This document shows, one piece after another, positions 43,166 to 64,000 of a stretch of 64,000 nt of DNA. Below the pieces are notes generated by a model. The model did no database searches and was not told the origin of the DNA. It saw only the letters and a program-made list of their open reading frames with translations. Made by a program: the position numbers and the translations under genes. Within the stretch, counting starts at the first letter, position 1. Each line of letters begins with the position of its first letter. This DNA comes from SAR86 cluster bacterium (GTDB taxonomy: Bacteria > Pseudomonadota > Gammaproteobacteria > Magnimaribacterales > TMED112), in contig CP097967.1 in assembly GCA_023703535.1 (NCBI GenBank), positions 796,156 through 860,155 of the forward strand. Reading direction: 5' to 3'.

Positions 43166-44108
43166 ACTTCATAGAAAAAATACATATCAAAATAAAACTA
43201 TATTTATTGATGGTATGTGGAGATGTGGAAAATCGTTGCTTACTCCTCTTGTAGGTGCTCTAGATAATGTAGATAAAGTAAAATTTGACTACCACTCTGA
43301 ATGGGTATCTGTTCTGCATTTTCTTGGGAAGGTGGATTTAAATACAACAAAAATTCTTCTAAATATGTATTCAGATCTTACAACTTATAATAATTTTCTT
43401 GGTAGAGAGATTAATATCAGACCAAAAGATGACTCTGGGATTTTTAAAAATCCAAAATCACTCAACTATTTATTAAGAATATTTAAAGATGATACCTCTG
43501 ATATATCAAAAGAAATTGAAATTAAAAAACCTATACAGCTTATTAATACTCATAATGTCTTTCAAATTAGTGAGCCACTAGTAGAAAGTTTTAATGAAAG
43601 GCTCCTTTTTCTAAGGTGTGTAAGAAATCCTGTTTATAATATCCTCGATTGGGCTGAATACTTCGAAAAAGTAGGCGAGGATCCAAGAGAAATGAATTTT
43701 TATTTGAGTAAGAAACAGATTCCATGGTTTGTTTCTCAAGATAATCAAGATTTATTTGCCAGCGTCTCTTTAATAGAAAAGGCTGCAATTATGTATATTG
43801 AACTTGAGTCACTCTCAGAAAAAATTGAGAGCAAAAAAATCTTTAATGAGAAAAATTTACTTGTAATTCCCTTTGAAAAATTAACTAAAGATCCAAACTT
43901 TTTTATGTCTGAAATTTGCAAAAGACTAGATATTGCAAATGACAAAAGTTACCAAAAACTTTATAAAAAATTAAAACTACCAAGACCTTCTAACTCAATT
44001 GATGAAAATAAAGCTCTTAAAGATAAGATAATTCAAAAAATTGAAAATCACTCTATAAAAAATAATTTAGAGAACCTTATTAGTATTTATGAATCAAAAT
44101 ATTCATAA
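43158..44108 (+). CDS. Sulfotransferase-like protein
   Basis: DGMWRCGKSLL (5'-PSB-like loop) and VRNP (3'-PB-like). Confidence 0.65.
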   Translation: MSELHRKNTYQNKTIFIDGMWRCGKSLLTPLVGALDNVDKVKFDYHSEWVSVLHFLGKVDLNTTKILLNMYSDLTTYNNFLGREINIRPKDDSGIFKNPKSLNYLLRIFKDDTSDISKEIEIKKPIQLINTHNVFQISEPLVESFNERLLFLRCVRNPVYNILDWAEYFEKVGEDPREMNFYLSKKQIPWFVSQDNQDLFASVSLIEKAAIMYIELESLSEKIESKKIFNEKNLLVIPFEKLTKDPNFFMSEICKRLDIANDKSYQKLYKKLKLPRPSNSIDENKALKDKIIQKIENHSIKNNLENLISIYESKYS

Positions 44109-47955: not shown

Positions 47956-48409
47956 ATTCTCTTAATTCCAAAACATAATCACTACAAACACCAAAAATTT
48001 CTTTATCTAATTTTATTTTTGAAACTTCCATATCCCATTCAGGCATCACCAAAATCGAGTTTTTCAGAAGTTTTTTTCCAGGATAAACCCATACAAAATT
48101 CTTAGAAGTTAGGGTGTAGTCATCTTCTTGATGCCAGAAATAATTTGCATCTTGAAATAAGTTGATATGGTTTAGCGCCTCTAAATCTTTGCAATGAATC
48201 CAAAACCTATCAATGCTATCAAGTAAAAAGTCTTTTGATATTGGATATTGATTATAATCGTGTCCCAAGAAAAGGTTATTACTCTCATCACATCTTAGAT
48301 CAATTTCAACATCGAAACCTTTTTCTAAAGCCTCACAGATTTGATCAGGATTATTTTCTTTATCTTTGTCAGGTCCTTGAAATAGACCCCGATGAGCTAT
48401 GAATTTCAA
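47945..48409 (-). CDS. PLC-like/glycerophosphodiester phosphodiesterase-like small protein
   Basis: IAHRG, EN, GFDVEIDL, LGHD, WIHCK, GVCSD. Confidence 0.75.
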   Translation of the reverse strand: MKFIAHRGLFQGPDKDKENNPDQICEALEKGFDVEIDLRCDESNNLFLGHDYNQYPISKDFLLDSIDRFWIHCKDLEALNHINLFQDANYFWHQEDDYTLTSKNFVWVYPGKKLLKNSILVMPEWDMEVSKIKLDKEIFGVCSDYVLELRESNS

Positions 48410-49776
48410 TTTTTAAAGTGATTATGATAAAAATCTAAATCTTCAGGTGTACCTAAGCCCCACATTTCTTCAACATCATAAATTTTTATCTTTTTCTTAT
48501 CTTCAATAGCTTGATTAAAGACAGGGCAAACATAGAATTCGTTATTTACACGTATGTCTTTTTGTATCATATCTTCAGCATATTTCACATAATCAGATCC
48601 TTTGCTCCAATAATAGACCCCAACAGTTGCATCTTCAGAAATCACTTGCTTTTCTGCAACTTCAGTTACAAATCCATCGTCACCTGATTTTGCATAAGAC
48701 CATTTTGGATGAGTTGCCTTAAAGGTTAAGATTCCTCCGTCTACTTTGCTTTCAGACATGTTGTACATGGTGTTTGAAGCATTCCATTTAATGTATTGAT
48801 CAGAATTAGCTATAACTAATGGATTGTCATTGTTTATAAATTCTTTAGCTAATAGTGTTGTGCAAGCTGCACCCTCAGTAACTCCGCTTATTTCAATTAC
48901 CTCACAATTAGGTCTTATGGCTTTCAAAAATGATTTCATATTATATTTTTCATTATGTTCTTTCTGAATAATGAATATGAATCTACCCTCTATAGCTAAC
49001 GACTCAACAACAACCTGTATCATTGGTTTGCCAAAAACTTCTATTAACGGTTTAGGAAACGTATATCCTGCTTGTGCAAACCTTGAGCCTGCTCCAGCGC
49101 ATGGAATAAGAACATTTATATTAGGATCAGTCCAAATTTGGTTCATGCTGCTATTATCAAACTTTTTAAGATAATTTGGTAGATTCTTCTCGACGAGATC
49201 TCTAGGATTTTTAACGGCAAATAGATTAGCTCCAGAATCTAGCGCTCCTTTTCTTCCAACAAAGGAATCCTCTATTATTACTGTTTGTTTGGGTGTAACT
49301 CCTGCTTTTAGCATGCACTGCCAATACATCTCAGGATAAGGTTTAGGAAATTTTACATCATCATTACTCACAAAATAGTCAACATCATTTATTACATCAA
49401 TTTTCTGGAGCATTTTTTCTACTGTTGATCGAATGCTATTACTTGCGACCATTACCATATAATCCTTCGAAACTTCTTTAACGAGCTCTGTAATACCCTC
49501 AATTCTAATATCAATCTCATCAAGTACTTCAATGGTTCTTGTTTGCTTCTCTTCCCATATTTCTTTAAAAAACTTTTTATCTAAACCTTTTTCTTCATTA
49601 AGAATCTCAAGCTTTCTTTTAGTTGGTAGTCCATCATATTTTTCAAGATGCTCCTCGTAAGTGATAGATATATTAAATTTAGCTAATGATTTATTAAGTG
49701 CTTCGAAATGAAGCATTTTAGACTCCATTAGAACGCCATCAAGGTCGAAAATAACTAATATATCTTGGTTTTTCAT
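48406..49776 (-). CDS. HAD phosphatase plus sugar nucleotidyltransferase fusion
   Basis: N-domain FDLDGV...KPYP...IEDS; C-domain IPCAGAGSRF, FPKPLI, TEGAACT, NSDQ, GLGTPED. Confidence 0.88.
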   Translation of the reverse strand: MKNQDILVIFDLDGVLMESKMLHFEALNKSLAKFNISITYEEHLEKYDGLPTKRKLEILNEEKGLDKKFFKEIWEEKQTRTIEVLDEIDIRIEGITELVKEVSKDYMVMVASNSIRSTVEKMLQKIDVINDVDYFVSNDDVKFPKPYPEMYWQCMLKAGVTPKQTVIIEDSFVGRKGALDSGANLFAVKNPRDLVEKNLPNYLKKFDNSSMNQIWTDPNINVLIPCAGAGSRFAQAGYTFPKPLIEVFGKPMIQVVVESLAIEGRFIFIIQKEHNEKYNMKSFLKAIRPNCEVIEISGVTEGAACTTLLAKEFINNDNPLVIANSDQYIKWNASNTMYNMSESKVDGGILTFKATHPKWSYAKSGDDGFVTEVAEKQVISEDATVGVYYWSKGSDYVKYAEDMIQKDIRVNNEFYVCPVFNQAIEDKKKIKIYDVEEMWGLGTPEDLDFYHNHFKN

Positions 49777-49850: not shown

Positions 49851-50819
49851 GTGAAATTTGGTCTAATTATCCAAGGCCCTCTATTATCAATAGGTAGAGG
49901 TGTAAGTTCGTACAAAAAAAAGGCAGAAACGAGCGAAAATGAAATCATTAAACACCAATGTGATGAAACAATAATTTCTAATATTGAAAACTATGGAAAT
50001 TTGTTCGAGAAAATAATTATTTCTACTTGGAAAGATGAAAAGATCTCAAAAAAATTATCAGAATATATAAAGTCTAAAAATAATGTTGAAATCTATCAAT
50101 TTTCCAAAAGTGATGTTCCAGAACTGCCAAAATTAAAAGTGCCATCTTCTTGGAGCAAAGAGATGAGCTCTATTATGAATGTAAACAATAATTTAAATCA
50201 GTACACAGGATGCAAGTTGGGGTTGGTGAAATTAAAGGATGTTGATTTTGTTATAAGAGTAAGGACTGATCAAGAAATTAATATACAAAAATTAAAGGAA
50301 TTTATATTAGAAAACCCAAAAAAGATCGTAGTTCCTGGAATATTTTTTGAAAATTATATATATCAAATTGCGGACTTTTATTTTGGTGGCAGTTATAAAA
50401 ATATTCTTAATTTTTTTGAAGCATGTTCAAAAAATATTTTTGATTTTTCCCCACATATTAATCCGATATCTTGTCTAGCAAATAGTAAATACCTTGATGA
50501 ATTAAATATGAATTCTGAGGTACTTTATTATTCAAAGGAGTCTTTTCAGTACAAAATTATGCAAAATTTCGTAATTAGTAAGGCATTGTTACCAAGTCCC
50601 AGCAGCATTTATCAAAAAATTTCTTGGCGAGGAGAAAAGGCTGGAACAGAGTGGAAAAATCAAAATAAAAACATATATTTCTATGAAAATTTCTCAGATA
50701 TTAAACAATTGGTATTGCCTGAGTCTAATAGAATAATAGATTCAAAACTTTATAGCTCTAAATCAAACTTTTTTACTAAAGTACTAAGAAGATTAATTAA
50801 ATTAGAATTATTCAAATGA
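49851..50819 (+). CDS. WavE-like LPS synthesis protein
   Basis: LIIQGP, IISTW, NNN..Q, RVRTD pattern; GTG start. Confidence 0.65.
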   Translation: MKFGLIIQGPLLSIGRGVSSYKKKAETSENEIIKHQCDETIISNIENYGNLFEKIIISTWKDEKISKKLSEYIKSKNNVEIYQFSKSDVPELPKLKVPSSWSKEMSSIMNVNNNLNQYTGCKLGLVKLKDVDFVIRVRTDQEINIQKLKEFILENPKKIVVPGIFFENYIYQIADFYFGGSYKNILNFFEACSKNIFDFSPHINPISCLANSKYLDELNMNSEVLYYSKESFQYKIMQNFVISKALLPSPSSIYQKISWRGEKAGTEWKNQNKNIYFYENFSDIKQLVLPESNRIIDSKLYSSKSNFFTKVLRRLIKLELFK

Positions 50820-52561
50820 AAGAATATTTAATACGTATTTACTCATTACTTTATGAAGATAAAAAAAGACTTCCATTACTGCTTGTACTGTTTTTACTTA
50901 CTTCATTTTTTGATGCGTTAAGCCTAGCGATTTTATTTCCATTTATACAAATACTTGTGAATTTTCAGGATTTTCAATCTAGTTATGGATGGTTTTTTGA
51001 GAGCATAAACCTTACTTCGAAATCGGAAATTATTACATTCTTAGGCATTACACTTGTTTCACTATTCATTATTAAAGCTCTTGCTTCAATCTTGGTAAAC
51101 TGGGCCATTTTAAGAATAACCTACAATAGACAAGCAAAGATTAAAACATCTCTACTACATAAATACCTTAATATGCATTACAGAAAGTATATAGAAGGAA
51201 ATAGTGCCAGATACATTCAGATGATTCAAACAATGAGTATGCAATTCATTAAAGTTTTGCAAGGATTTTTAAGGCTTCTTTCAGATGGTCTTATTTTTCT
51301 TTCGATAGTAATTGTTTTAGCTATTGTTGAAGGCCCACTTTTAATTTATGTCGGCGGCATGATGATAGTTCTTCTTTTAATATATGACATTTTTTTCAAA
51401 AAACTTTTAGATAGCCAAAGTAGAGCTATTACTGACTCTAGTGTACAAGTCACAAAAACAGTAAATGAATCAATCCAAGGTCTTAAAGAAATTAAGATTC
51501 TTGGAAAACAAAACTTTTTTGAAGATATTCTTAAGGAAAATGTAGACATTTATGCAAAAAATAATATTTATGCTGATCTAATAAGAACGCAGCCAAAACA
51601 CATTATTGAGTTGATATTTGTAATTGCTTTTACTTTGGCAGTTGTGTTCTTTACTCCATTACAAAACGATTTTCAGAGCTTAATACCCACGCTTGGAGTA
51701 TTTCTCTTTGCTGCAATTAGGTTAATGCCTACCCTTAATCAAATGCTTGCTTCTGTAAATGTTCTTAGAATAGGCTACTATCCCACTACCCTTCTTTTTG
51801 AGGACATGACAACAAAACAAGACCTTGAAGAAGATGATTATAAAGCAAATGTCTTAAAAGATGGCTTCACCTCCATGCTTTTGAAAAATGTATTTTTCTC
51901 ATATAAAAATGATAAAGAACATCAATTAAATGGTATTTCATTACAGGTTGATAAAAATAAATCGATAGGTCTTTTTGGACAATCTGGATCAGGAAAAACA
52001 ACTCTTGTCGACGTGATGTTAGGTCTACTAGAGCCAAGTAAAGGCGAGATTCATTTAAATAACAAAATTGTAAAAAATAATAAAGAATTTAGAAATTTAG
52101 TGGCATATATTCCACAAGATATTTTCATAATTAACGACTCAGTAAAAAACAATATAACTTTAACTGGGAGGGATGAAGTTATTGATGATGTTTTATTAGA
52201 AGATGTAGTGTTGAGATCAAGACTTAAAGAGGTTATCAATAATCTCCCTGAGGGAATTAATACAAATATTGGAGAAAGAGGAGTAAAGCTTTCTGGAGGT
52301 CAAAAACAAAGAATTGCTATAGCTCGAGCACTCTATAACAAAAGAGAAGTTCTTATTATGGATGAGGCAACTAGTGCTTTGGATAATAATACGGAAAAAG
52401 AAATAATTGATGAAATAAGAAAGCTAAAAGGTAAAGTTACTATGGTAGTAATAGCGCATAGGCTTACAACACTGCAGCACTGTGATGAAATTTATGAAAT
52501 TAGTAATGGAAGAATTAGTGAAAAATATAACTATGAAGACATAAGTAAAAGTAAAAAATAA
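50816..52561 (+). CDS. ABC transporter permease/ATPase (MsbA/PglK-like glycolipid flippase)
   Basis: TM domain, GQSGSGKT, LSGGQ, MDEATSALD, IAHRL. Confidence 0.92.
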   Translation: MKEYLIRIYSLLYEDKKRLPLLLVLFLLTSFFDALSLAILFPFIQILVNFQDFQSSYGWFFESINLTSKSEIITFLGITLVSLFIIKALASILVNWAILRITYNRQAKIKTSLLHKYLNMHYRKYIEGNSARYIQMIQTMSMQFIKVLQGFLRLLSDGLIFLSIVIVLAIVEGPLLIYVGGMMIVLLLIYDIFFKKLLDSQSRAITDSSVQVTKTVNESIQGLKEIKILGKQNFFEDILKENVDIYAKNNIYADLIRTQPKHIIELIFVIAFTLAVVFFTPLQNDFQSLIPTLGVFLFAAIRLMPTLNQMLASVNVLRIGYYPTTLLFEDMTTKQDLEEDDYKANVLKDGFTSMLLKNVFFSYKNDKEHQLNGISLQVDKNKSIGLFGQSGSGKTTLVDVMLGLLEPSKGEIHLNNKIVKNNKEFRNLVAYIPQDIFIINDSVKNNITLTGRDEVIDDVLLEDVVLRSRLKEVINNLPEGINTNIGERGVKLSGGQKQRIAIARALYNKREVLIMDEATSALDNNTEKEIIDEIRKLKGKVTMVVIAHRLTTLQHCDEIYEISNGRISEKYNYEDISKSKK

Positions 52562-53430
52562 TGAGAGCCTTCTGTTACATTCAAAAAAAATACTATAAGT
52601 GGAAGATTGATCTAATAGCAGATGATTTATTTAAAGGCGAAAAGAAAAATTGTGAAATTGAAATAGTTTATCCAGAAAATTTTTCATTAAATACTCTTTC
52701 CAAAAAGAAGAAATATGATTTTCTAGTTGGCTGCAATGTTGATGATTTTAAATTCCAGCTACTGTATAAATTTTTAGATTTCGATAAATTTATTACCTTT
52801 GATGAGGGTCAAAGAAATATAAATGAAAATGATAAATATTATTCCAAGAATTTTTCTTTTGAAAATCAAAAAAAGTTTTATTTTTTGAATAAAATTTGTG
52901 GCTTTCCATTACCTTTTGGAAAGCTCCTGGAGAAAAGTGATAAACACTATTCGTTTTTTGACCCAAAAATTTTTAATCATCCTATTAAATCGACCACGTT
53001 TCTTAAGAAGAAAAAAATTACAAAAAAGATTACAAAGATATTCTTTGGAGTAAGTAGCAATTGGGTTTTTAGTCATAGAGAAGATCTTTTGAATAAACCA
53101 AAAATCATAGAGAAGAAAATAAATGAAGCAGCTTTGAAAATAAATAAACTGTGTCCTGATCTATACATCCCCCACCCCAGAGAAGATGAGAGAATACTAG
53201 AATTACTTAATGAGAATATTACTGTTGTAAATTGTCCAAATGGAAGTGAGGATTTTGTTAATAAATTAGCTTTAAATAATGAAATTGAGGTATTTACAGA
53301 AAAATCAGGGATAGTTTTTGATCTTAACAAAAAAATAAAAATTTCTTTTATTGATTTATTTAATAGGTTTAGTAAATCTGAATACGACAAGTTTAAAAAT
53401 CAATATAAAGAATTTAAGAAAAGCAATTAA
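52561..53430 (+). CDS. GT52-like CMP-ulosonate (sialyl-type) transferase
   Basis: TFDEG (D/E-D/E-G motif) and PHPRE (HP motif), as in Lst-type sialyltransferases. Confidence 0.7.
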   Translation: MRAFCYIQKKYYKWKIDLIADDLFKGEKKNCEIEIVYPENFSLNTLSKKKKYDFLVGCNVDDFKFQLLYKFLDFDKFITFDEGQRNINENDKYYSKNFSFENQKKFYFLNKICGFPLPFGKLLEKSDKHYSFFDPKIFNHPIKSTTFLKKKKITKKITKIFFGVSSNWVFSHREDLLNKPKIIEKKINEAALKINKLCPDLYIPHPREDERILELLNENITVVNCPNGSEDFVNKLALNNEIEVFTEKSGIVFDLNKKIKISFIDLFNRFSKSEYDKFKNQYKEFKKSN

Positions 53431-53674
53431 ATCGAAATGTTAGGTAAACTGTTGTAAATTGTCCAAATGGAAGTGAGGATTTTGTTAATAAATTAGCTTT
53501 AAATAATGAAATTGAGGTATTTACAGAAAAATCAGGGATAGTTTTTGATCTTAACAAAAAAATAAAAATTTCTTTTATTGATTTATTTAATAGGTTTAGT
53601 AAATCTGAATACGACAAGTTTAAAAATCAATATAAAGAATTTAAGAAAAGCAATTAAATCGAAATGTTAGGTAA
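53221..53674 (+). repeat. Exact tandem duplication, 2 x 227 bp (53221-53447 and 53448-53674)
   Basis: Copies compared base by base with no mismatch seen; unit spans the last 69 codons plus stop of the GT52-like gene and the start of the next gene. Confidence 0.95.
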
Positions 53675-54542
53675 AGATAGTAAAAAAAATATTCAATTTC
53701 CCGTACAAAAACAAGGCACACCAAGTGTAGTAGTTTTAGAAGACTTTTTTAATGAAGAATTTATAAGAGAAGCTAATAATGATTTTGAAGAGTTTATAAA
53801 AAAATCATCTGAGGTCGATTTTCTTAGTTTTGGAGAAACACGAAAAAATCTATCTTCAAGAGGATCTAGATATGAGGAAATTGTCAAATCGTCAAAATCT
53901 ATCAACAAAATTTGTGAATATATTAAGTCTGAGGAATTCTTTAAAAAATGTATTAAAAATTCGACTGAAGCATTCAATAAAAAAGGATTAAAAATAAAAA
54001 TTCCAAAATTTAATCAAAATTCCTTTGACTCTCTTAGGTTTGCTAAAAAATTCTCTATCTTATGGGCACTTAATAAGCTTCGCTTTGTTTTGTTTCGAAT
54101 TCCCTTTTTTGGAGACTTATTTGAGAGATTAAGTTTATCTATTTTTGGAAACGTAGCTCCTACTATTGATGTTGCACAATCTGCAATGGGTTATGAAGTT
54201 GGAATGCATACTGATAGCAGATTTAAACTCATGGCCGGAATTATTTATTTAAATACAACAAAAAATGATAGTGACGGGGAAACAGAGTTTTGGAGCTCCG
54301 AAGGTCTTTCAAACCTTGAAAATCAAAAAAGATATCCAGATAAGGAGGATATTAACAATTCCAAACTTTTAATGAGTGTTAAACCTAAGGCGGGAAGAAC
54401 TGTTTTATTCATAAACTCAAATGATGCTTATCATAGTGTTAAGAAATTTAAAGGAGATAAAAGGAACATCATATATTTTTCCTTTTCTGTTCCTATTTTA
54501 GATAATATCTGGAAAACAGATTTTAAAGTTAAATCTCTTTAA
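53664..54542 (+). CDS. 2OG-Fe(II) oxygenase superfamily protein
   Basis: HTD, GIIYLN, GETEFW, AYHSV, R (HXD...H...R triad). Confidence 0.8.
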   Translation: MLGKDSKKNIQFPVQKQGTPSVVVLEDFFNEEFIREANNDFEEFIKKSSEVDFLSFGETRKNLSSRGSRYEEIVKSSKSINKICEYIKSEEFFKKCIKNSTEAFNKKGLKIKIPKFNQNSFDSLRFAKKFSILWALNKLRFVLFRIPFFGDLFERLSLSIFGNVAPTIDVAQSAMGYEVGMHTDSRFKLMAGIIYLNTTKNDSDGETEFWSSEGLSNLENQKRYPDKEDINNSKLLMSVKPKAGRTVLFINSNDAYHSVKKFKGDKRNIIYFSFSVPILDNIWKTDFKVKSL

Positions 54543-55365
54543 TTGCTTCAAGCATGTGTTGATGAACAACATCCTCTTTGCCTACCAGATCATTAGCTAA
54601 ACAAAAGCCTATGACTGCCTGCATAAGATTCATTCGTGAGCCATCAATACAATTAAGAGAAAGAGAGCTTGCATCTCTTAATAGTTTTGAAGGACTGTTT
54701 ATATAATTAACATCGAATAACAGAGCTTCTTTGTTAATTAAACTTAATTGACTAGTTGAAAGAATAGAATCTTCATTATTTCCATCTTTACCTATAGAGG
54801 TGCAATTTATAAGAACATCATAGCTTCCTATATCAAAATTAAGCGAACCATAATCTTTAAAATTCATTCCAAAATCGGTAAATAAACCAGAAATTTCCTG
54901 ATTTCTTCCATAAACATCTACATCAAAATTTTTATTTTGATTAGAAAGTTGATAGCACAATGATTTTGAAACTCCTCCAGTTCCAAGAATGCATACCCTT
55001 TGAATATCTAAATCTTTTTTTACAGAACTAATTGATTCGAGTAAAGCTAAGGTATCAGTATTAGCTGCTGTAAACTTGCCTTCAGAATTAAAGAAACAAT
55101 TTTTTGGCTCAATAAAACTACCATTATCATCTGCAAAATAATTAGCAACAACTTCTTTAAGTGGTGCTGCTACGGCTCCACCAATAAAATCAGGTTTTGT
55201 TGTTTCTGAATCTAAGAATTCTATTGCATCGCTTTCATGCTCTATATCTACAGTAGTCATTTCTGCATCAATATCGAGCGCATTAAAAGCAGCATTCCAT
55301 AAAATAGGAGAACGAGCACCCTTTGAAACATCTTTCCCTATTATTACCGCCCTCTTCATCGTCAA
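54529..55365 (-). CDS. Divergent shikimate dehydrogenase-family protein
   Basis: RSP, PLK, NTD, LGTGG, MNLMQA; several substrate residues changed. Confidence 0.8.
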   Translation of the reverse strand: MTMKRAVIIGKDVSKGARSPILWNAAFNALDIDAEMTTVDIEHESDAIEFLDSETTKPDFIGGAVAAPLKEVVANYFADDNGSFIEPKNCFFNSEGKFTAANTDTLALLESISSVKKDLDIQRVCILGTGGVSKSLCYQLSNQNKNFDVDVYGRNQEISGLFTDFGMNFKDYGSLNFDIGSYDVLINCTSIGKDGNNEDSILSTSQLSLINKEALLFDVNYINSPSKLLRDASSLSLNCIDGSRMNLMQAVIGFCLANDLVGKEDVVHQHMLEAIKEI

Positions 55366-56237
55366 ATTACTTCTTTAGAAACTGCTTTTGCAACGTTATC
55401 CATTTTTTTCATGAGAGAATTAAACGTTTCAAAGTTGATTGGTTGCAAAGGATCAACAGCAGAATTTTCTGGATCTGGATGAACCTCTAACATTATTGAA
55501 TCAGCTCCAGATGCAATTGATGCAAGTGTCATTGGTTCGACCCAATCACGCCAGAAGGTTGCATGGGATGGGTCTGTAGCAACTGGAATATTTGTTATTT
55601 CTTGTGTTGCTGGAACAACTTGTAAATCCAATGAAAATCTAGAAGTTGCCCTGTGAGTATGTGGAATTGACATTCCTCTCTCACATAAAATTAATTTTGT
55701 ACAGCCCTCCTTAAGAGCGTACTCAGCTGCTCCCAACCAATCTCTTAATGAGGCACCATAATGTCGTTTAAGCATTATAGGGAAACCTGTCTTTGCTGAT
55801 TCTACAATTAGAGGATAATTTTGCATGTTTCTAGATCCAATCTGAAGAATATCTGTAGCATCGCATACTGCATCTAAATGTTTTTCTTCCATAACTTCAG
55901 TTATGACAGGTATTTCAACCTCCTCTCTGGCTGATTTTAACCACTTTAGACCATCTAAGCCCGTTTCTGTATATTTCTCATTTCTATAAGGAAAACTTAA
56001 AGGTTTGAAAGCTCCACCTCTTAGAAAACTAGCACCTGAAGCTTTTACTGACTTCGCAGTTTCTATGATGAGTTCTTCTGACTCAACCATGTTTGGACCT
56101 GCCATAACAGGAATCTTTTTACCATTAAAAACAACACCTGCTATTTCGAAAGGTTCTTTTGAAAAATTAGCTACTAAAGGTATTTTGGACTTTATATCCT
56201 CTTCAGTTATATCTTTTCCGGGAAACTTGTTATACAT
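55362..56237 (-). CDS. Divergent type I-beta DAHP/KDO8P synthase-family protein
   Basis: AGPNMVES, RGGAFKP, QIGSRNMQN, LKR, LCERG, DPSH, EVHPDP, AVD; no regulatory domain. Confidence 0.9.
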   Translation of the reverse strand: MYNKFPGKDITEEDIKSKIPLVANFSKEPFEIAGVVFNGKKIPVMAGPNMVESEELIIETAKSVKASGASFLRGGAFKPLSFPYRNEKYTETGLDGLKWLKSAREEVEIPVITEVMEEKHLDAVCDATDILQIGSRNMQNYPLIVESAKTGFPIMLKRHYGASLRDWLGAAEYALKEGCTKLILCERGMSIPHTHRATSRFSLDLQVVPATQEITNIPVATDPSHATFWRDWVEPMTLASIASGADSIMLEVHPDPENSAVDPLQPINFETFNSLMKKMDNVAKAVSKEVI

Positions 56238-57291
56238 CTTGCCCTAGTTTAGCTGATCTCACATCATCAGAAAATGAAATTATTGAATTATTCTCCACAG
56301 ATGAATATAAAGCATGAATATATTTTATTGAATCTAAACTGGATTCTGCACTTGTAGGAAAAATAATTTTTCCTGAATCATTAAAATTTTTACTAATTTC
56401 TTTAAGCATATGATAATGACCGTTACCATAACCATTTTTTACAGTTTCTGAGTTCTCTTTAAGTTCATTTGATAGCTCCACTCCATCAAGCTTAACTCTT
56501 GTAAGCTCATTTAAAGCGATACCTCCAACTGAAATTTGATATTTATCAGTCACCACTTCTAATGATGCTGAAAAATCTTCAGGTCTCACAGCGGTCGTTG
56601 CTTCAATTGTAAAAAATCCACCCTTTAAAAGTGTTCCAGACGCAACAAAAGTATCCTCAGCCTCAAGTTTATTATTGATATTTCCAGAGAAACCAGATAA
56701 AAATTGCGGAGGGCCAAATAAATAAAATAGAGCATCAATATGGTGTATTGCTTGTTGGCTAATTACTCCACCATCTGTTTTCCATCTCCCGTGCCATTCA
56801 TCATTGTAATAATCTTGAAACCTACACCACTGCAATTTAACACTTGCTGAAATGATTTTTCCAAAATCATTTTGTGAAAAGAGATTTTCAATATATTTAA
56901 TAGGTTTATTCAGTCTGTTTTGAAATACACCTCCGTAAAGAACATTTTTTTCTTTAGCAAGTGCCATATTTGCAACAACATCCTCTACGTTAAGACCTAT
57001 AGGTTTTTCACACAGAACATTAACTCCATTTTGTAAAAGTACCTTTGAGTTTTCAGCATGACTGCCTGATGGAGTAGTAATTATTGCAATATCAACATCA
57101 TCTTTGCTTACCTCATCTATTGAAGCAAAGGTCTTACCTGAATTCTCTTTTTCCCATTTGCTCCTTGATTCTGCATACTGGTCTATGCCTACAGAAAAAA
57201 TATATTCATCAGATAAATTTTCTTTAATAACTTCAGCATAATGTTGAGCTGCTCGCCCTAAACCTATGAAAGCTAGTTTTAATTTACTCAA
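56230..57291 (-). CDS. Gfo/Idh/MocA oxidoreductase (WlbA/WbpB-like)
   Basis: GLGRAA, CEKP, QNR, WCRFQDYY..WHGRWKTDGG, QAIHHID. Confidence 0.85.
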   Translation of the reverse strand: MSKLKLAFIGLGRAAQHYAEVIKENLSDEYIFSVGIDQYAESRSKWEKENSGKTFASIDEVSKDDVDIAIITTPSGSHAENSKVLLQNGVNVLCEKPIGLNVEDVVANMALAKEKNVLYGGVFQNRLNKPIKYIENLFSQNDFGKIISASVKLQWCRFQDYYNDEWHGRWKTDGGVISQQAIHHIDALFYLFGPPQFLSGFSGNINNKLEAEDTFVASGTLLKGGFFTIEATTAVRPEDFSASLEVVTDKYQISVGGIALNELTRVKLDGVELSNELKENSETVKNGYGNGHYHMLKEISKNFNDSGKIIFPTSAESSLDSIKYIHALYSSVENNSIISFSDDVRSAKLGQDV

Positions 57292-58609
57292 ATTTCACCT
57301 CAAACTTACTCATTTCTTCTTCAGTGCTTATTTCAATCATATCAGCTTGATTAAGTTGGGGGATAAGATTTACCCTTTTTTGTAAAAAGTTCCCATTCCT
57401 TAAATCTGATGCATTAAGTGTGCACCCAAAACCAAATGGACAAATCATCACTGATGATTCCTCCAATTCTCTTGGTAATAGCTGATTATTTATTGCTATT
57501 TCACTTTCCTCTCCTCTTGTAAAACATATTCTTTTTTCTTCATGGCTATAAAGTGTTGGTAGAAATGCTGATTCGTAAAAACTATCTACCAAATTTTTAA
57601 AACTACTCTGATCTCTAAAAGGGTAGTTAACAGAAGAAAGAGTAATAGAATTAGGTATATATTTTTGATTTTCAAAATCTAAAAGACAATCTTTTAATAC
57701 ATCATTTAAGGAGGTGTCATAGTCTTTTGTGCTTCTATCAAAAATATTGAGTCCAGATTCTTCTGCTTGCTTCAAAGCCTTTTTATCAATTCCACAAAAT
57801 ACTATGTCTTCAAAAACCGAACTTTTTTTTGCATCACTTATAACTTTTCGCAAAAGACCAAGACGAAAGTTGTCATATTTTTCTCTATCAAAAATAATAA
57901 GTATGTCTTTTGTTTTTCCTTTATATTCACAAAGATTTTCACTCTTAAATTCGTCTGCTTCCATTATTTGAACAATTTTTTTAGCTCTTTTTTTATCTGC
58001 TTCCTGATGTATGCCATGATGATGAAAAACTACTGCATCCGGCTCATATACAATCTTGAGTTTATTCTTTATAACTTCTTTTCCCCAAATTCTGTCCTCA
58101 ATATTAGTCACTTCATCATCGAAACGAAATTTCTCCCAGGTTTTTCTTGTAAATGCTGAGTTGGCGTTGTGAAAAAAAGAATCCTTTTCCTGAACTCTCT
58201 TATCATTTCCAAATGTCAAAAATAAATCCCTTTTATCGAGATAATGTGATGAACTTGTGGGTACTTGCTTTCCATAAACACCCGCAATTTTTTCATCTTC
58301 TAAATCACTTACTAAATTTTTAAGCCAATCTTTCTCTTTGGGAATGCAGTGAGCAGACAAACATATCAGATAATCTCCTGAAGAGTTTTCAATTCCATAA
58401 TTTATTGCGTTTCCTGGTTTAAATTCTTTGAGGGTAACTACTTTTACATTCCATTCTTTTGCTTTTTCAACAGTCTTGTCTGTGGAACAGTTATCTACAA
58501 TAATTACCTCAAAATTTTTGTAATCCTGTTTGAAAATTGCATTTAAACAAATAGAAATCCATTTTTCTTCATTCTTTGTTCTAATTATTATGGAAGCTTT
58601 TTTCATCAT
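57284..58609 (-). CDS. GT2 glycosyltransferase with C-terminal degenerate cytidylyltransferase-like domain
   Basis: SIIIRTKNE, VDNCSTD, LSAHC, NANSA, IEDRIW; C-half has YPFR and IEISTEEE echoing NeuA motifs. Confidence 0.75.
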   Translation of the reverse strand: MMKKASIIIRTKNEEKWISICLNAIFKQDYKNFEVIIVDNCSTDKTVEKAKEWNVKVVTLKEFKPGNAINYGIENSSGDYLICLSAHCIPKEKDWLKNLVSDLEDEKIAGVYGKQVPTSSSHYLDKRDLFLTFGNDKRVQEKDSFFHNANSAFTRKTWEKFRFDDEVTNIEDRIWGKEVIKNKLKIVYEPDAVVFHHHGIHQEADKKRAKKIVQIMEADEFKSENLCEYKGKTKDILIIFDREKYDNFRLGLLRKVISDAKKSSVFEDIVFCGIDKKALKQAEESGLNIFDRSTKDYDTSLNDVLKDCLLDFENQKYIPNSITLSSVNYPFRDQSSFKNLVDSFYESAFLPTLYSHEEKRICFTRGEESEIAINNQLLPRELEESSVMICPFGFGCTLNASDLRNGNFLQKRVNLIPQLNQADMIEISTEEEMSKFEVKFE

Positions 58610-59340
58610 ATTTTCTCTGGTACCGGAGGTAAATTGTCAAAATCATTCTCTTTGATCCATTCGGCTGCCTTATTAGCTAAAAATAAATCAAAATTATTAT
58701 GTATGTCTAACGCTGAAAAGCTTCTATTATCTGTTATCAGCTTAACATTGTCACCAATTCTACGCCCATTCCTCCAAAGGTTTGAACGAGATGCACAAGC
58801 TAACCCAGTATCTTCCCTGTATGATTTTCTTCTAACTTGTCTACTCTCATAAACACTCATCCATTCTTTTAGACGTATTGGATTATTATCAATTACCTCC
58901 CAAAAGTTTTTGTGAGTTTCATTAGCGACGAATACACTCTCTAATTCATTATTTTCTTCAAGTGCATCTATAGCATGATCTATCCATCCATCTCTTCTGA
59001 ACAAATCAGTACATGTTAAAAAAACGCATATATCAAAGCTTTGTTTAAATATTTTTTCTGACTCCAATAAAGAATACTTTAATGTCTCCTCAGTGGTTGT
59101 TAAATCACCTGAAACATCACTAGTACGCAAAAACGGAACTTCTGCACCATATTTTAAAGCAACCTCCCTTATGTCTTTATCGTCTGTAGAAACAACTATT
59201 TTCGAAAGTTTCTTAGATCTTTTAGCTGCCTCGATTGGCCATGCAATTAAAGGATGACCCAAGAATTCTCTTAAATTCTTTTTCTCAAGCCCTTTAGAAC
59301 CTCCCCTTGCAGGGATTATTGCTATACTATTACTCTGCAT
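58606..59340 (-). CDS. Acylneuraminate cytidylyltransferase-family protein (NeuA-like)
   Basis: IIPARGGSKGLEKKN, VVSTDD, GAEVPFLR, LDIH. Confidence 0.9.
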   Translation of the reverse strand: MQSNSIAIIPARGGSKGLEKKNLREFLGHPLIAWPIEAAKRSKKLSKIVVSTDDKDIREVALKYGAEVPFLRTSDVSGDLTTTEETLKYSLLESEKIFKQSFDICVFLTCTDLFRRDGWIDHAIDALEENNELESVFVANETHKNFWEVIDNNPIRLKEWMSVYESRQVRRKSYREDTGLACASRSNLWRNGRRIGDNVKLITDNRSFSALDIHNNFDLFLANKAAEWIKENDFDNLPPVPEKI

Positions 59341-59356: not shown

Positions 59357-60523
59357 ATGATAAGTATAGTAATTCCATCTAGAAATGATGACATTGAAGT
59401 TTTTCAAAAAACCATTAACGCAATAAAAAAACAAACTGTATTGCCAAAAGAAATTATTATTGTTGATTCAAGTACTGATAATTCAATAAAAAACTTTTTA
59501 CAAAAGCAAAAATTAAAGCTAATTAATCTTATTTACAAAAAAATTGATGGGTCATTTGCAGGAAAAAGTACAAATATTGGAATGTCTCTTGCAACACAAA
59601 AGTTTATTGGTTTGCTTGATACCAAAACAATTCCAAATGATACATGGATAGAAAAATACATAAAACAATTGGAAAGAGATAACTCAGATTTGATTTTTGG
59701 AAATACAAAATTCTTCTCTAAAAATAGATTTCAAAAAATACTAAGAATTCTTTCATATGGTGACGCGTCACATGAAACAGTTCCTGGAACTATATTTAAG
59801 CGCAGTAAATTCGGCAAAAAAATGTTTTTCATTGAAAATGTCAGATCATCATATGATATTGAGTGGAGAGAGAGACAAAAAACTCTTTTGAAAACTTCTT
59901 TAGGTAATGAGATTGAAATAGAGTATGGAGAATTTCCAAATTCATTCTTGGATGCTGCAAAAAAATACTTTATTTATAGTTTTTATACTGCAATTGTAAA
60001 TGTTCAAAAGGATGCGAAAGATCTATATTTATCAATTTTTATAATCTTATCCGCATTAGTCATACCAAGATGGAATTTTTTTCTTGAAGGCTGGGATGAA
60101 AATCCGCTCTATATTGCAGATGTAACAAAAAAATACTTTTTATCACTATTGGTAATTTTTTTGAGTTTTTTAATTGCATCAAGATTTTTTCCTAAACAAG
60201 TAGAAAATAGGCTTCCATTTATTACTCTTAAATACACAGTTTTTCTTTTTATCTTTCTTTCTGTTTTTAATTGGAATGCAGTAGTGGCTGACTGGGTAGA
60301 GGATACTGTTTTTTACATTCCACATATCACGAAAATTTTTGTGGTTTTAGTTTTGGTTTCCTCTGTATTGGTTAGAGGACTTTTTAAACCAGTAAGCAAC
60401 AAAGTTAAATTAAATTATCTTCTTCCCTTTAGGTGGTTATTTATTGGCACTATTGGGCTAATACTGGATATTGTTAAAGCTCCTGGTTACATAATAGGTT
60501 CCTTGATTTCAAAATTTAGATAA
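59357..60523 (+). CDS. GT2 glycosyltransferase with C-terminal membrane domain
   Basis: SIVIPSRND, IIVDSS, LLD, followed by several TM helices. Confidence 0.8.
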   Translation: MISIVIPSRNDDIEVFQKTINAIKKQTVLPKEIIIVDSSTDNSIKNFLQKQKLKLINLIYKKIDGSFAGKSTNIGMSLATQKFIGLLDTKTIPNDTWIEKYIKQLERDNSDLIFGNTKFFSKNRFQKILRILSYGDASHETVPGTIFKRSKFGKKMFFIENVRSSYDIEWRERQKTLLKTSLGNEIEIEYGEFPNSFLDAAKKYFIYSFYTAIVNVQKDAKDLYLSIFIILSALVIPRWNFFLEGWDENPLYIADVTKKYFLSLLVIFLSFLIASRFFPKQVENRLPFITLKYTVFLFIFLSVFNWNAVVADWVEDTVFYIPHITKIFVVLVLVSSVLVRGLFKPVSNKVKLNYLLPFRWLFIGTIGLILDIVKAPGYIIGSLISKFR

Positions 60524-61253
60524 AACTTTTTATATCAAGAAACTCTGATTCAATGTTGTAAGATTTAGAAATTCTTTTTGGGATTTTTAATGCTTTAATT
60601 TTTAAGCTCTTTGAAAATGAATTCATAAATCTTAAGAAATTAAGTGGACTCCCATTTAAGTCATTTTTATACTCTTGTAATTGTTGAATTATGTAATCTT
60701 TCACAATAAAAATACTCTGATCTGCTAACCCCTCGTCCCAATTTATTTCTATTTTGTTATCAATTGAGAGATGAATATCCTTAACAAAGTCAGAATTTTC
60801 TTTGAGCACATATTTCACATAAGGATTTTTATCAAATATTAAGGGTACAAAAATGTCAGCACCCTCAGAAATATTTAAATGCTTTTCAAATGCAGATGTT
60901 GAATCGATAATAAAAGTATCGCCCCAGCACACAAATATTAGACTACCATTTGCTTTAAAACTACGTAATCCATCTAAAACAGCTTGTCCATCCCCTGAAC
61001 CAGACTCACTTTCAATGAATTTAATCTTAGATAAAAAATGATCCTCAATATTTTTGTTGAACAATTCTTTTGAAGATTTATCTTTAGGTATTGGTATTAT
61101 TATTGTTTCAAAATACTTATTAACTTCCTCTAAAAGATAATTTATCGCTGCTCTACCATTAATTTTTAGTAGTTGCTTTGGTACTGATGATTTCATTCTT
61201 GATGATTTTCCAGCACATGGAATTATAATTTTTCTCAAGAATCTGATCTCCAT
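60516..61253 (-). CDS. Nucleotidyltransferase (GlmU-N/IspD-like fold)
   Basis: IPCAGKSSRM, PKQL, GDGQAV, WGD. Confidence 0.8.
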   Translation of the reverse strand: MEIRFLRKIIIPCAGKSSRMKSSVPKQLLKINGRAAINYLLEEVNKYFETIIIPIPKDKSSKELFNKNIEDHFLSKIKFIESESGSGDGQAVLDGLRSFKANGSLIFVCWGDTFIIDSTSAFEKHLNISEGADIFVPLIFDKNPYVKYVLKENSDFVKDIHLSIDNKIEINWDEGLADQSIFIVKDYIIQQLQEYKNDLNGSPLNFLRFMNSFSKSLKIKALKIPKRISKSYNIESEFLDIKSFI

Positions 61254-63427
61254 TTCGAGCTATTTGCGCCCATTATTAATGATGAAATTTTTAAATTATC
61301 ATGTTTGCCTGAATCAATAGATTCAAAATCTTCAGCGAGTATTTCTTTAAGATCTAATTGATATAATTCACTCATATTTAACCTTATGTATCTGGAATCT
61401 TGTTTTGATGGAGAATTTGAGATAATTACATCAAAAAGTTCAGGTACCTGAAAATTAAGTTTTCCCTTTTGATTTAAATAAAACCTTGCCTGTTTAATTT
61501 GATCTGCAGCTGTAAATTCTGGCGTTTCATTATCATGATCAATATTTGTTATAAAAAACTTTTGTGCTGAAGATTTTGAAATCTCTTCAGTTAATCCTTT
61601 TGTCCAATAAGTTGGATATAAACTGCTGTATTGAGTACCAGGACCATATATTATTATGTCAGCTTTTCGAACTGCTAAAGCAGTATCTTGGCTAAGGTCA
61701 GGGAATGGTGATGATATATTTTCAAGAAATTGTTTTTTCTTAATAAGCCCTGTTAAAGATTCAAATTGTTTCTCTTCTTCTTCTGATAGTGGGTATGTTT
61801 TATAAAAAATTTCAAAAATTGGTGTTTTTCCCTCATAACCTACAATTTCTGACTCGTCTTTCAGAAGCTTTCCATCCTCTGTAAGACCAAAAAGATAACC
61901 AGCTTCTGATGAATTAAGGAAAACCTCATTTGGCAAATTGAAGGCATCTCTCACCATAAGTTCAACTTTCTTTATATCCCCATATTTATGCTCTAGAGAA
62001 CCATAAATAATATTAGACAAGGCAAAATCTTGGATTTCTAATGATTTATTTTGCTCTTCAGAAATTTTTTTAAAATGTGAAAGCGAATCACTAATTATCT
62101 CTTGCATCTGATAATTCATTTTTTGGTAATAAGGGAAAAACTCTGATTTATAATTTTGATTATCTAAAAGCTTAGAAATATCATTTTTAAAATCAAGAAA
62201 GTCACATGATGTACGGCTTTTAAAAAAATCGAGCCCCTCTCCTTCAGGATAATAAAATTCATATTGAGTTTCTTGGACTTTTCTTAAATCAGAAGGTCCT
62301 AAAATTTTGTAATCAAAAAAAGCTCTTATCGCGCCAGTTGAAAGGCCATCATCATAAGCATTAATAATATTTGTTAAATTTAAATTAACGTCATTTACTT
62401 TTGAAAACTCTCTAAGTCCATCACATAAGTTTATCGAGCCTCTTCCTCCTGAAAATACGACTACATTCAAACCATTTTGATTAATATCATAAAATCCTTT
62501 TTTTCCTTGAATACCATGAAGATATCCTTTGAAAAAATAGCGAAGATTTATTAGAAAATTGTGATAATTAGAATGAAAGAATAAAAAAAATAAGCCTGCA
62601 GTAAACTTTAAATTGTGAGCAAGCAAGTATAAAAACCACCCAACCGAGAATGATTTGAAGTTCTTTTTAAGAAATAATAATGATCCTCTTGTTGAGTAAT
62701 ATAACCATTGTTTATTTGCATATTTATTTTTGCTGCCTGTTTTAGTATCGTGATAACCAATAGCTTTCGGAGTAAAGCGATGAATATTTTTCGCTTTTAT
62801 AGAACGGTACATCAGATCATGATCGTCGTAATAGAGAAAGTAATCTTTATCAAACCAACCAATTTCTTTTTCTATTTTTCTGGAAATTAATACCATACAT
62901 CCATTTAGGGCATCAAGAGTTCTAGCTTCAGAGAATTTTTCGTGATTAGTCTCATTAACACCAATACCCTTTGCTATTGCATAGTAAGGTTTTAAGTCGG
63001 CACCAATAGCATGCAATGTATCCTTATTTTGAAAATAAAATACTTTTCCGCCAACAAAAGTATGTTTTTCTGATTTTTCTGCTTCATTAACTAGCTCAGC
63101 AACACAATCTTTATCAAGTACTACATCTTCGTCCATTTTTAGCATGTATTTCCAATCCTCACGAATAACCTTTAAGGCTTCAATATATGAACCTGATGAA
63201 CCAGAATTTAATTTTAAATCTAGAAGTTTTATTTTTTTGTTATCTATTTCCCTAGAAAAGATTTTTTTAATTTCAGATACTGTTCCGTCATTAGAGTTAT
63301 TGTCTACAACAATTACCTCAAATGAATCCTCTGGATAATTTTGTGAAAGAATGGATTGAATGCTTTCATTGATAATGTACTTTCTGTTATAACTTGCTAC
63401 AACGATGCTAACAAAAGGTTTTTTCAT
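61235..63427 (-). CDS. GT2 glycosyltransferase fused to CofD/YvcK (UPF0052) domain
   Basis: N: SIVVASYN, VVDNNSND, MDED, YYDDHD. C: SGGRGS, YDDGLSTG, GPSDLRK, GPGTQYSSLYP. Confidence 0.85.
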   Translation of the reverse strand: MKKPFVSIVVASYNRKYIINESIQSILSQNYPEDSFEVIVVDNNSNDGTVSEIKKIFSREIDNKKIKLLDLKLNSGSSGSYIEALKVIREDWKYMLKMDEDVVLDKDCVAELVNEAEKSEKHTFVGGKVFYFQNKDTLHAIGADLKPYYAIAKGIGVNETNHEKFSEARTLDALNGCMVLISRKIEKEIGWFDKDYFLYYDDHDLMYRSIKAKNIHRFTPKAIGYHDTKTGSKNKYANKQWLYYSTRGSLLFLKKNFKSFSVGWFLYLLAHNLKFTAGLFFLFFHSNYHNFLINLRYFFKGYLHGIQGKKGFYDINQNGLNVVVFSGGRGSINLCDGLREFSKVNDVNLNLTNIINAYDDGLSTGAIRAFFDYKILGPSDLRKVQETQYEFYYPEGEGLDFFKSRTSCDFLDFKNDISKLLDNQNYKSEFFPYYQKMNYQMQEIISDSLSHFKKISEEQNKSLEIQDFALSNIIYGSLEHKYGDIKKVELMVRDAFNLPNEVFLNSSEAGYLFGLTEDGKLLKDESEIVGYEGKTPIFEIFYKTYPLSEEEEKQFESLTGLIKKKQFLENISSPFPDLSQDTALAVRKADIIIYGPGTQYSSLYPTYWTKGLTEEISKSSAQKFFITNIDHDNETPEFTAADQIKQARFYLNQKGKLNFQVPELFDVIISNSPSKQDSRYIRLNMSELYQLDLKEILAEDFESIDSGKHDNLKISSLIMGANSSKWRSDS

Positions 63428-64000
63428 TTTGAAAGTTCCTCATAAATTGAAGTATATAACTTTAATCCTGACTTTAATGAAAATTCTTTTTTGCCAATTT
63501 CAATACACTTTAAATTTAGTTTCTCTTTATTATTATTTGGATTTACAAATTTAAAAACTTTCTCTATATCGCCTTTAGCAAAATTTGTAATAATTCCACA
63601 GCCTTGCTTAGTTAAGTATTCAATATCATCGTTAAACCGATTGCATATAATTGGGACTCCGCACATAAGAACCTCTCCTATTTTTGTAGGCATAGAGGCT
63701 TTAACTGAAAAGTTTTCATTCAAATAAAATATACATGCATTAAAGTTATTAATTTGACTAACTAGTTCTTTCTTATCTCTAATAAATTTAATTGAAATCT
63801 TTTCAAGATCTTTGAATCCAGTTTCTCTAGCTATACTCATTATCTTAGATTCAGGGGTTGAAGAATATATGTCTAGGTAAGCATCTCTATGCTTTTGAGA
63901 AAACAAATTGAAAAAATTTAAAACTTTTTGAAAATTATATGCTGTATCAAGAGTTCCCAAATAACCGAATCTTATAGTTTGATCCTCATCTTTTTTTATT
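63424..64000 (-). CDS. Glycosyltransferase (GT4-like), C-terminal part; gene starts beyond the window
   Basis: Frame open to the window end (FGYLGTLDTAYNF), SMPTKIGEVLMCGVPII. Confidence 0.7.
   Translation of the reverse strand, partial: IKKDEDQTIRFGYLGTLDTAYNFQKVLNFFNLFSQKHRDAYLDIYSSTPESKIMSIARETGFKDLEKISIKFIRDKKELVSQINNFNACIFYLNENFSVKASMPTKIGEVLMCGVPIICNRFNDDIEYLTKQGCGIITNFAKGDIEKVFKFVNPNNNKEKLNLKCIEIGKKEFSLKSGLKLYTSIYEELSK

Follow-up and report, generated by a model that had tools for sequence, protein, structure and literature searches.

A GT2 glycosyltransferase fused to a long CofD/YvcK-like domain and paired with a GlmU-like nucleotidyltransferase in a SAR86 surface-glycan island

A 64,000-nucleotide stretch of a SAR86 cluster bacterium genome (assembly GCA_023703535.1, contig CP097967.1, positions 796,156 to 860,155; hereafter the window) encodes a 730-residue protein in which a family 2 glycosyltransferase (GT2) is joined to a long domain of the CofD/YvcK superfamily. 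The next gene encodes a nucleotidyltransferase (NT). We find that the long domain represents a third, uncharacterised branch of the superfamily, at work in surface-glycan synthesis. Judged from gene order and gene fusion, its coupling to the NT is very strong. We consider it highly probable that the domain acts catalytically alongside the NT and the GT2 in glycan synthesis. Much more tentatively, we propose that its product is the sugar-1-phosphate from which the NT prepares the GT2 donor. Architecture and partnership can be regarded as established, but not the reaction.

A preliminary description of this DNA, made from the sequence alone, had reported a 730-residue fusion of GT2 and UPF0052 domains overlapping a nucleotidyltransferase gene. 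Both open reading frames (ORFs) run exactly between the positions given there (Table 1), and Pfam recovers both domains in a frame free of internal stops: PF00535 (GT2) at residues 7-141 (E 2e-22) and PF01933 (CofD) at residues 322-700 (3e-24), with the related GT2 model PF13632 reaching residue 283. The 245-residue NT matches IspD in addition to NTP_transf_3 (PF12804, 3e-10). It starts with an ATG at 61253, 19 nt ahead of the TGA that ends the fusion (61237-61235), an overlap that suggests translational coupling of the two proteins. The stretch at the junction of the two fused domains is possibly a membrane-interface segment. The fusion is not an assembly artefact, because the 730-residue frame and its NT neighbour recur in congeners, on independent contigs from marine metagenomes and in 22 of the 260 family proteins collected. 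Four congeners have the same frame and the same neighbour at 94-97% nucleotide identity. Within the genus, the fusion occurs in 5 of 30 genomes, and one further genome has an unfused trio of GT2, CofD and NT genes in unchanged order. Both genes of the window are covered, at 95-99% identity, by contigs from four metatranscriptome studies, and two of them bridge the junction; these RNA-library contigs are consistent with transcription of both genes, strand and DNA carry-over not being resolvable from them.

Table 1. Features of the fusion locus (window positions).
Feature	Position	Strand	Evidence or remark
GT2::CofD/YvcK-like fusion protein (P0122), 730 aa	61235-63427	-	ORF listing and Pfam
GT2 domain, aa 1-300	62528..63427	-	PF00535; DxD = D99-E100-D101
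Hydrophobic/amphipathic stretch, aa 257-305, at GT2-CofD junction	62513..62659	-	read from translation
Long CofD/YvcK-like domain, aa 317-730	61238..62479	-	PF01933
Overlap of fusion stop and NT start, 19 nt	61235..61253	-	identical layout in four congeners
NT, 245 aa, GlmU-N-like (P0121)	60516-61253	-	ORF listing, PF12804 3e-10
GT4-like glycosyltransferase gene, 3' part	63424..64000	-	first gene of conserved module (family F5)

To place the pair in its wider setting, we clustered the neighbours of the CofD-like gene all-against-all at 80 genome loci. A recurrent cassette emerged, made up of a GT4-like glycosyltransferase (family F5), the CofD-like protein (F0), a HAD_2 hydrolase (F2), a GT2 (F3) and the NT (F1). 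Partners were then counted with family hidden Markov models (HMMs), on the same strand and within 6 kb, at the 71 loci from many phyla that have a called CofD-like ORF. The NT was present at 59 of these, HAD_2 at 50, the F3 GT2 at 43, the F5 GT4 at 35 and a GT2 of family F6 at 23; among the 12 loci lacking the NT, 3 end early downstream. Marine metagenome contigs keep a strict order of GT4, GT2, CofD (alone, GT2-fused or HAD-IIB-fused) and NT. The preliminary description had coupled the two genes and named homologues without an NT neighbour as the observation that would speak against it. Such homologues were not found among loci of the same architecture, where all 11 with downstream DNA have the NT directly after the fusion, and the coupling extends to the 59 distant loci and to 15 proteins in which the NT and the CofD-like domain are fused. 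The upstream GT4-like gene of the window, which continues beyond it to the equivalent of position 64620 and encodes 398 residues, is homologous to F5 in other phyla (E 4e-19); the closest solved relatives of its product are WaaG, sucrose-phosphate synthase, MshA and BshA. Another neighbouring family, F14, was first taken for a small phosphoglycosyl transferase and turned out to be a hexapeptide acetyltransferase. In Clostridium sp. KNHs205 and Lachnoclostridium (L063:9998-11882 and L067), a stand-alone CofD-like gene and a HAD_2 gene lie in an apparent trans-AT polyketide cluster with a 2988-residue ORF, an HMG-CoA-synthase-like gene, an enoyl-CoA hydratase and a macrolide/rifamycin-type GT1, and without the NT of the module. 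Here the family occurs outside glycan synthesis.

The family is widespread. A domain profile searched against 1.84 billion cluster representatives (50% identity) returned 656 proteins of the long clade at E<=1e-30, that is, about 656 clusters. Members occur in 495 of ~185,000 species genomes (one genome per species) from many phyla. Prochlorococcus/Synechococcus, Pelagibacteraceae, sphingomonads, Accumulibacter, Acidobacteriota and Bacteriovorax are among the carriers, and culturable ones appear under the record names Sphingomonas sp. Leaf33, Novosphingobium aquimarinum M24A2M and Geomonas limicola Red745. The window protein belongs to the clade by its domain of ~400 residues, its run of motifs from GGRG to GxH and the NT and GT2 at its locus. 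Among the 260 collected proteins, the domain stands alone in 129 and is followed by a GT2 resembling AglJ or polyprenyl-phosphate-sugar synthases in 76. The GT2-CofD order of the window accounts for 22, CofD-HAD-IIB for 9, NT-CofD-GT2 for 7, CofD-HAD-IIB-NT for 3, HAD_2-NT-CofD-GT2 and CofD-NT for 2 each, and NT-CofD for 1. The domain tree has three clades. The GT2-CofD fusion arose once, its 22 proteins forming a single clade (SH-aLRT 92) that adjoins the CofD-HAD-IIB forms (support 100), and the NT fusions, which take five architectures, have at least three independent origins. The preliminary description did not recognise the fusion as a characterised family; in agreement with this, our full-text literature searches found no characterised member of the long clade. 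The names given to relatives of the domain in the ESM Atlas are generic only ("gluconeogenesis factor", "CofD family").

The domain is conserved to a degree that argues for an enzyme rather than a passive binding domain. Across 67 sequences with ~30% identity to the query, 40 columns are invariant, among them GGRG, NAYDDGxSTG, GPSDxRK, GTQxSSLxP, NxxxDxE and GxH, and all 40 are kept in the fusion. There the motifs read GGRG (residues 327-330), NAYDDGxSTG (356-365), GPSDxRK (377-383), GTQYSSLYP (597-605), NIxHDNE (628-634) and GxH (707-709). The invariant D359/D360 of NAYDD and D380 of GPSD align with the DDG and PGD motifs of YvcK; their correspondence to the FbiA metal ligands Asp45 and Asp57 is by motif position only. 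In FbiA, those two aspartates bind the metal, and a hydroxyl attacks the beta-phosphate of a nucleoside diphosphate (NDP) donor (PMC7253369). In GlmR, an Asp-Asp pair is needed for the reported uridylyltransferase activity (PMC10128056, PMC13046274).

By both sequence and fold, the domain lies nearer YvcK/GlmR than CofD. Against solved chains its profile finds only YvcK/GlmR-type proteins (2hzb, 2o2z, 2ppv, 2p0y and 2q7x; E 1e-33 to 1e-25), CofD being absent from the PDB chains matched at E<1. An AlphaFold (AF2) model of the domain (pLDDT 92.7) compared by Foldseek and VIA-align gives YvcK first (E 6.5e-20; Z 34 to 2ppv/2o2z, root-mean-square deviation (rmsd) 2.1-2.4 Å, 23-27% identity) and FbiA/CofD second (E ~3e-9; Z 20-22 to 6uw7, 6uw1 and 3c3d); ribokinase-type sugar kinases are the next neighbours, and weak ones (Z 8-9). 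YvcK/GlmR of the UPF0052 family, known from B. subtilis and L. monocytogenes (2hzb, 2o2z, 2ppv, 2q7x), thus has the same fold (VIA Z 28-34, rmsd 2.1-3.2 Å over ~300 residues) and shares the motifs GGxG, DDGxSxGxxR, PxDxR, GxxxxSxxP, NxxxxxET and a C-terminal H. The domain differs from it in length, with ~410 residues against ~320 (members of the TIGR01826 YvcK model have ~310-330), the excess being an inserted helical subdomain of ~60-100 residues absent from YvcK. It also has GGRG in place of GGTG and further residues specific to the family. Its score against TIGR01826 is 69.8 bits, below the cut-off of 196, and the only CofD-superfamily models in NCBIfam that it matches, the YvcK-related and GAK CofD-like ones, are both below their cut-offs. 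The setting differs as well: the domain occurs in glycan clusters with NT, HAD and GT2 genes, is fused to GT2, NT or HAD, and has GT4, NT, GT2 and AsnB genes as neighbours in place of the yvcJ-glmR-yvcL operon (PMC10128056).

The preliminary description had drawn an analogy to F420 synthesis, in which CofC activates a phospho-acid that CofD then transfers. This part was not supported: the NT is GlmU-like with no match to CofC, and the domain is closer to YvcK/GlmR. CofD/FbiA (the 2-phospho-L-lactate, phosphoenolpyruvate or 3-phosphoglycerate transferase, EC 2.7.8.28; 3c3d, 6uw1) does belong to the same superfamily (PF01933, 3e-24) and has a nucleotidyltransferase partner, and its metal-binding Asp motifs appear conserved in the domain by motif position. 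It is missed by the profile at E<1, the partner here is GlmU-like, and the context is that of a surface glycan. Neither CofC (PF01983) nor CofE (PF01996) has a Pfam match in the host genome, and we rejected a true CofD role in F420 synthesis on these grounds together with the nearness to YvcK. A CofC-like role of the NT as activator of a phospho-acid was rejected as well, CofC being absent from the best 60 PDB matches of the NT family profile and, by Pfam, from the genome. The donor chemistry would instead be that of sugar-1-phosphate and NDP-sugar.

The window NT matches the F1 family HMM (E 1e-38) and can be aligned to the NT domains within the fusion proteins P0101 (7e-12) and P0075 (2e-16); it is the most divergent member of F1 (16-23% identity) and lacks, among others, the near-invariant Gln of the family. 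Against the PDB, the family profile matches the uridylyltransferase domain of GlmU (4aaw, E 9e-33) over its full length (positions 5-241). Family invariants A14, G15, R19, P25, K26, W110 and D112 make up an N-terminal G-x-G-x-x-R and P-K signature and a metal-binding Asp (WGD). Because the genome already has a housekeeping glmU elsewhere, the NT of the module is presumably specialised. The GT2 half of the fusion, a GT-A domain, is orthologous to the separate F3 GT2 (E 2.6e-100 to that of locus L003). Residues N14, R15, N43, D47, D99, D101, H226 and Y244 are invariant in F3, and the fusion keeps the DxD. Among the F3 GT2s of the module (loci L007-L082), 32 of 34 match the model of the galactofuranosyltransferase GlfT1 (best E 2e-34), all below its cut-off; the window GT2 does not match it. 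The host genome and 15 of 20 carrier genomes lack UDP-galactopyranose mutase. The HAD_2 partner most resembles the sugar phosphatase TM1254 (7e-37), CbbY (6e-27) and beta-phosphoglucomutase; members of the clade of the window have a Cof-type HAD-IIB domain in its place or no such partner. Since two unrelated HAD subtypes stand in for each other, the partner is probably a phosphatase. A phosphomutase is less likely given this interchange and the sugar phosphatases that are its closest solved relatives.

We propose that the fusion and the NT form the core of a self-contained module that would make one dedicated sugar donor and install it on a surface glycan. The CofD/YvcK-like domain, dependent on Mg2+ through its conserved Asp-Asp and Asp motifs, would begin with phosphate chemistry between a nucleotide and a sugar; by elimination, the likeliest reaction would be one in which a nucleoside triphosphate (NTP) donates a phosphoryl or diphosphoryl group to a sugar or sugar phosphate at its anomeric hydroxyl. 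Where a HAD phosphatase is present, it may remove the extra phosphate to give the sugar-1-phosphate, following the logic of HldA, GmhB and HldC in the heptose pathway. By homology, the GlmU-like NT would then combine sugar-1-phosphate and NTP into an NDP-sugar, and the GT2 domain would move the sugar onto a lipid-linked glycan begun by a WecA-type enzyme. The heptose pathway employs a kinase (HldA/HddA), the HAD phosphatase GmhB and a nucleotidyltransferase (HldC/HddC), and HldE fuses two steps that are not consecutive. With a glycosyltransferase added, these are the four functions of the module. The likeness is one of working only: the heptose kinase adopts a PfkB or GHMP fold in place of the CofD one, and there is no sequence relationship.

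Among the recurrent gene families annotated at module loci there is no kinase or mutase, which leaves the step that forms the sugar-1-phosphate without an enzyme. We prefer the proposal of sugar-1-phosphate supply because it alone gives the four recurrent functions distinct steps, as in the heptose pathway. The pathway-like fusions (CofD-HADIIB-NT, HAD2-NT-CofD-GT2, NT-CofD-GT2 and CofD-HADIIB) fit it, as does the weak structural resemblance to ribokinase-type sugar kinases (Z 8-9). The Clostridial polyketide cluster, with its CofD-like protein, HAD and macrolide-type glycosyltransferase and no NT, also fits supply of a donor better than decoration of a glycan, and the 40 residues invariant across phyla suggest a fixed small-molecule substrate. 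Several points weigh on the other side. We know of no CofD/YvcK-superfamily member that is a kinase, so the first step has no precedent in the superfamily. CofD/FbiA moves a phospho-acid off an NDP donor, releasing a nucleoside monophosphate (NMP; PMC7253369), and for GlmR the reported activity is that of a uridylyltransferase (PMC10128056). Glycosyltransferases are the most frequent fusion partners (105 of 260), which would be more natural for two enzymes acting on one glycan. The HAD is absent from the window locus and from several relatives, and hence dispensable, and the NT could draw on housekeeping sugar-1-phosphates with no kinase needed.

A different role for the domain, which we rate only somewhat less likely, has the better chemical precedent. 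It keeps the phosphodiester substituent that the preliminary description had inferred for the glycan, with a changed donor. The NT would make an NDP-sugar and the domain would work as CofD does: a glycan hydroxyl would attack the beta-phosphate, NMP would leave, and a sugar-1-phosphate or other phospho-group would become a phosphodiester on the residue just added by the fused GT2. TagF/TarL, LicD and Stealth proteins perform the same kind of reaction, turning NDP-X and a glycan hydroxyl into X-phosphate-glycan and NMP; their folds are unrelated, and our searches detected no homology to them. Such a transfer accords with the fold and superfamily held in common with CofD/FbiA (Z 20-22) and with the counterparts of FbiA Asp45 and Asp57 kept, at the motif level, as NAYDD and GPSD (PMC7253369). 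The NT is nearly always a neighbour or fusion partner, as CofC is for CofD, and fusion to two types of GT2, in both orders and as the commonest architecture, would be expected of consecutive steps on one acceptor. However, a recurrent and often fused HAD sugar phosphatase would be left without a role, and both the four-domain proteins whose C-terminal GT2 is of the polyprenyl-phosphate-sugar-synthase-like type and the polyketide context without an NT are awkward to accommodate. The domain is also nearer YvcK than CofD, the NT is not CofC-like, and very high conservation across clusters with differing sets of glycosyltransferases would be unusual for an enzyme that has to read a variable glycan.

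The affinity to YvcK/GlmR raises two further options, both of which we regard as poor candidates. The closest characterised relatives (Z 34, 23-27% identity) are reported to make UDP-GlcNAc through the Asp-Asp motif kept here (PMC10128056, PMC13046274), and the domain might be an accessory nucleotidyltransferase of the GlmR type, converting NTP and sugar-1-phosphate into NDP-sugar and pyrophosphate, so that two NTs feed the GT4 and the GT2. The module does contain two glycosyltransferases, and the Clostridial set of HAD, CofD-like protein and GT1 would make a complete mini-pathway. Nevertheless, a second NT beside, and even fused to, a GlmU-like one looks redundant in a streamlined genome of 1.07 Mb. 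GlmR activity in S. aureus cells has been questioned (bioRxiv 10.64898/2026.06.23.733835), and GlmR Asn198, one of three residues mutated together, is aligned with Thr/Ser here as we read the alignment. We find this option improbable, and still more so a role in sensing nucleotide sugars, without catalysis, to regulate the fused GT2, as was first proposed for UDP-GlcNAc-binding YvcK. YvcK binds UDP-GlcNAc and UDP-Glc (PMC5482804), and the C-terminal GxH is aligned with the region of B. subtilis R301. A sensor would nonetheless hardly need 40 invariant residues, mostly polar or charged and including the metal-binding Asp motifs, and the domain stands alone in half of the cases and is elsewhere fused to NT and HAD. 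A role as a soluble initiating phosphoglycosyl transferase on undecaprenyl phosphate was also set aside, given the WecA-type enzyme that follows the NT in close relatives (4 of the 11 same-fusion loci) and the one encoded in the window.

A bolder reading would make the module a route to an NDP-hexofuranose that is free of UDP-galactopyranose mutase. Phosphorylation by the domain at the anomeric hydroxyl, with the sugar or sugar phosphate in its furanose form, would fix the ring; once the HAD had removed the surplus phosphate, the product would be activated by the GlmU-like NT and installed by a GT2 resembling furanosyltransferases. The GlfT1 matches (32 of 34, the window GT2 not among them), the mutase missing from the host and 15 of 20 carriers, and an island in Mycoplasma fermentans PG18 are hints in this direction, none decisive, and we think this reading very unlikely. 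The M. fermentans glucofuranan island, for which an origin in Clostridia has been proposed, brings together genes for a GT2 synthase, a CofD-family protein and an NDP-sugar nucleotidyltransferase (PMC11658790). We liken it to the module by description only; its CofD-family gene is described as split into two pseudogenes, and the polymer is an unsubstituted beta-1,6-glucofuranan (PMC11658790). That report was the only paper found in our full-text searches to tie a CofD-family gene to a polysaccharide locus.

Any of anomeric phosphorylation, phosphosugar transfer or nucleotidyl transfer by the domain would constitute a new enzyme class for glycan assembly. To our knowledge, only two branches of the CofD/YvcK superfamily have been studied, one in F420 synthesis and the other the debated GlmR of Gram-positive cell-wall control, and a clear activity for the long-clade domain would inform the open question of YvcK/GlmR function. 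For abundant ocean bacteria, in which such islands shape interactions with phages and grazers, the module would be a further variable trait of the cell surface.

The host genome is a single contig of 1.07 Mb with ~30% G+C, and the stretch is present in seawater and marine metagenome runs from many studies. An extensive surface-glycan island surrounds the fusion and the NT. Genes upstream, in the same orientation, encode a UDP-glucose-dehydrogenase-like protein, GT1 enzymes, a Wzz-like protein, an AsnB-like amidotransferase and the GT4-like glycosyltransferase; downstream of the NT come a convergent GT2 gene and then a sugar-acid cassette. The window encodes a WecA-type initiating transferase (21789-22826, minus strand), the only one in the genome besides MraY, and no initiating transferase of the Bac_transf type was found anywhere in the genome. 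The housekeeping glmU outside the window (G000:C1:1054781-1056131) appears as two overlapping matches, the C-terminal piece reading through several stops; a frameshift, an error of assembly or the six-frame search itself may be the cause. Just past the window end, a UDP-glucose/GDP-mannose dehydrogenase-like ORF (L002:7079-7948, minus strand) has only 289 residues, covering a partial N-terminal and the central domain without the C-terminal one; it may be truncated or its start miscalled.

Elsewhere in the island, a 456-residue fusion of a HAD_2 hydrolase and an NTP_transferase (48406-49776, minus strand) is a second, separate sugar-activation fusion. The sugar-acid cassette (54529-59340, minus strand) encodes a PseF/KdsB-like cytidylyltransferase, a GT2, a Gfo/Idh/MocA oxidoreductase and DAHP-synthase-like and shikimate-dehydrogenase-like proteins, and begins 16 bp from the divergent GT2 gene at 59357. 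An ABC exporter, a GT52 (sialyltransferase-like) gene and a 2OG-Fe(II) oxygenase gene follow one another at 50816-54542 on the plus strand, and a sulfotransferase-like gene lies at 43158-44108. The exporter, GT52 and oxygenase row and the sulfotransferase-like gene together suggest a heavily decorated acidic glycan.

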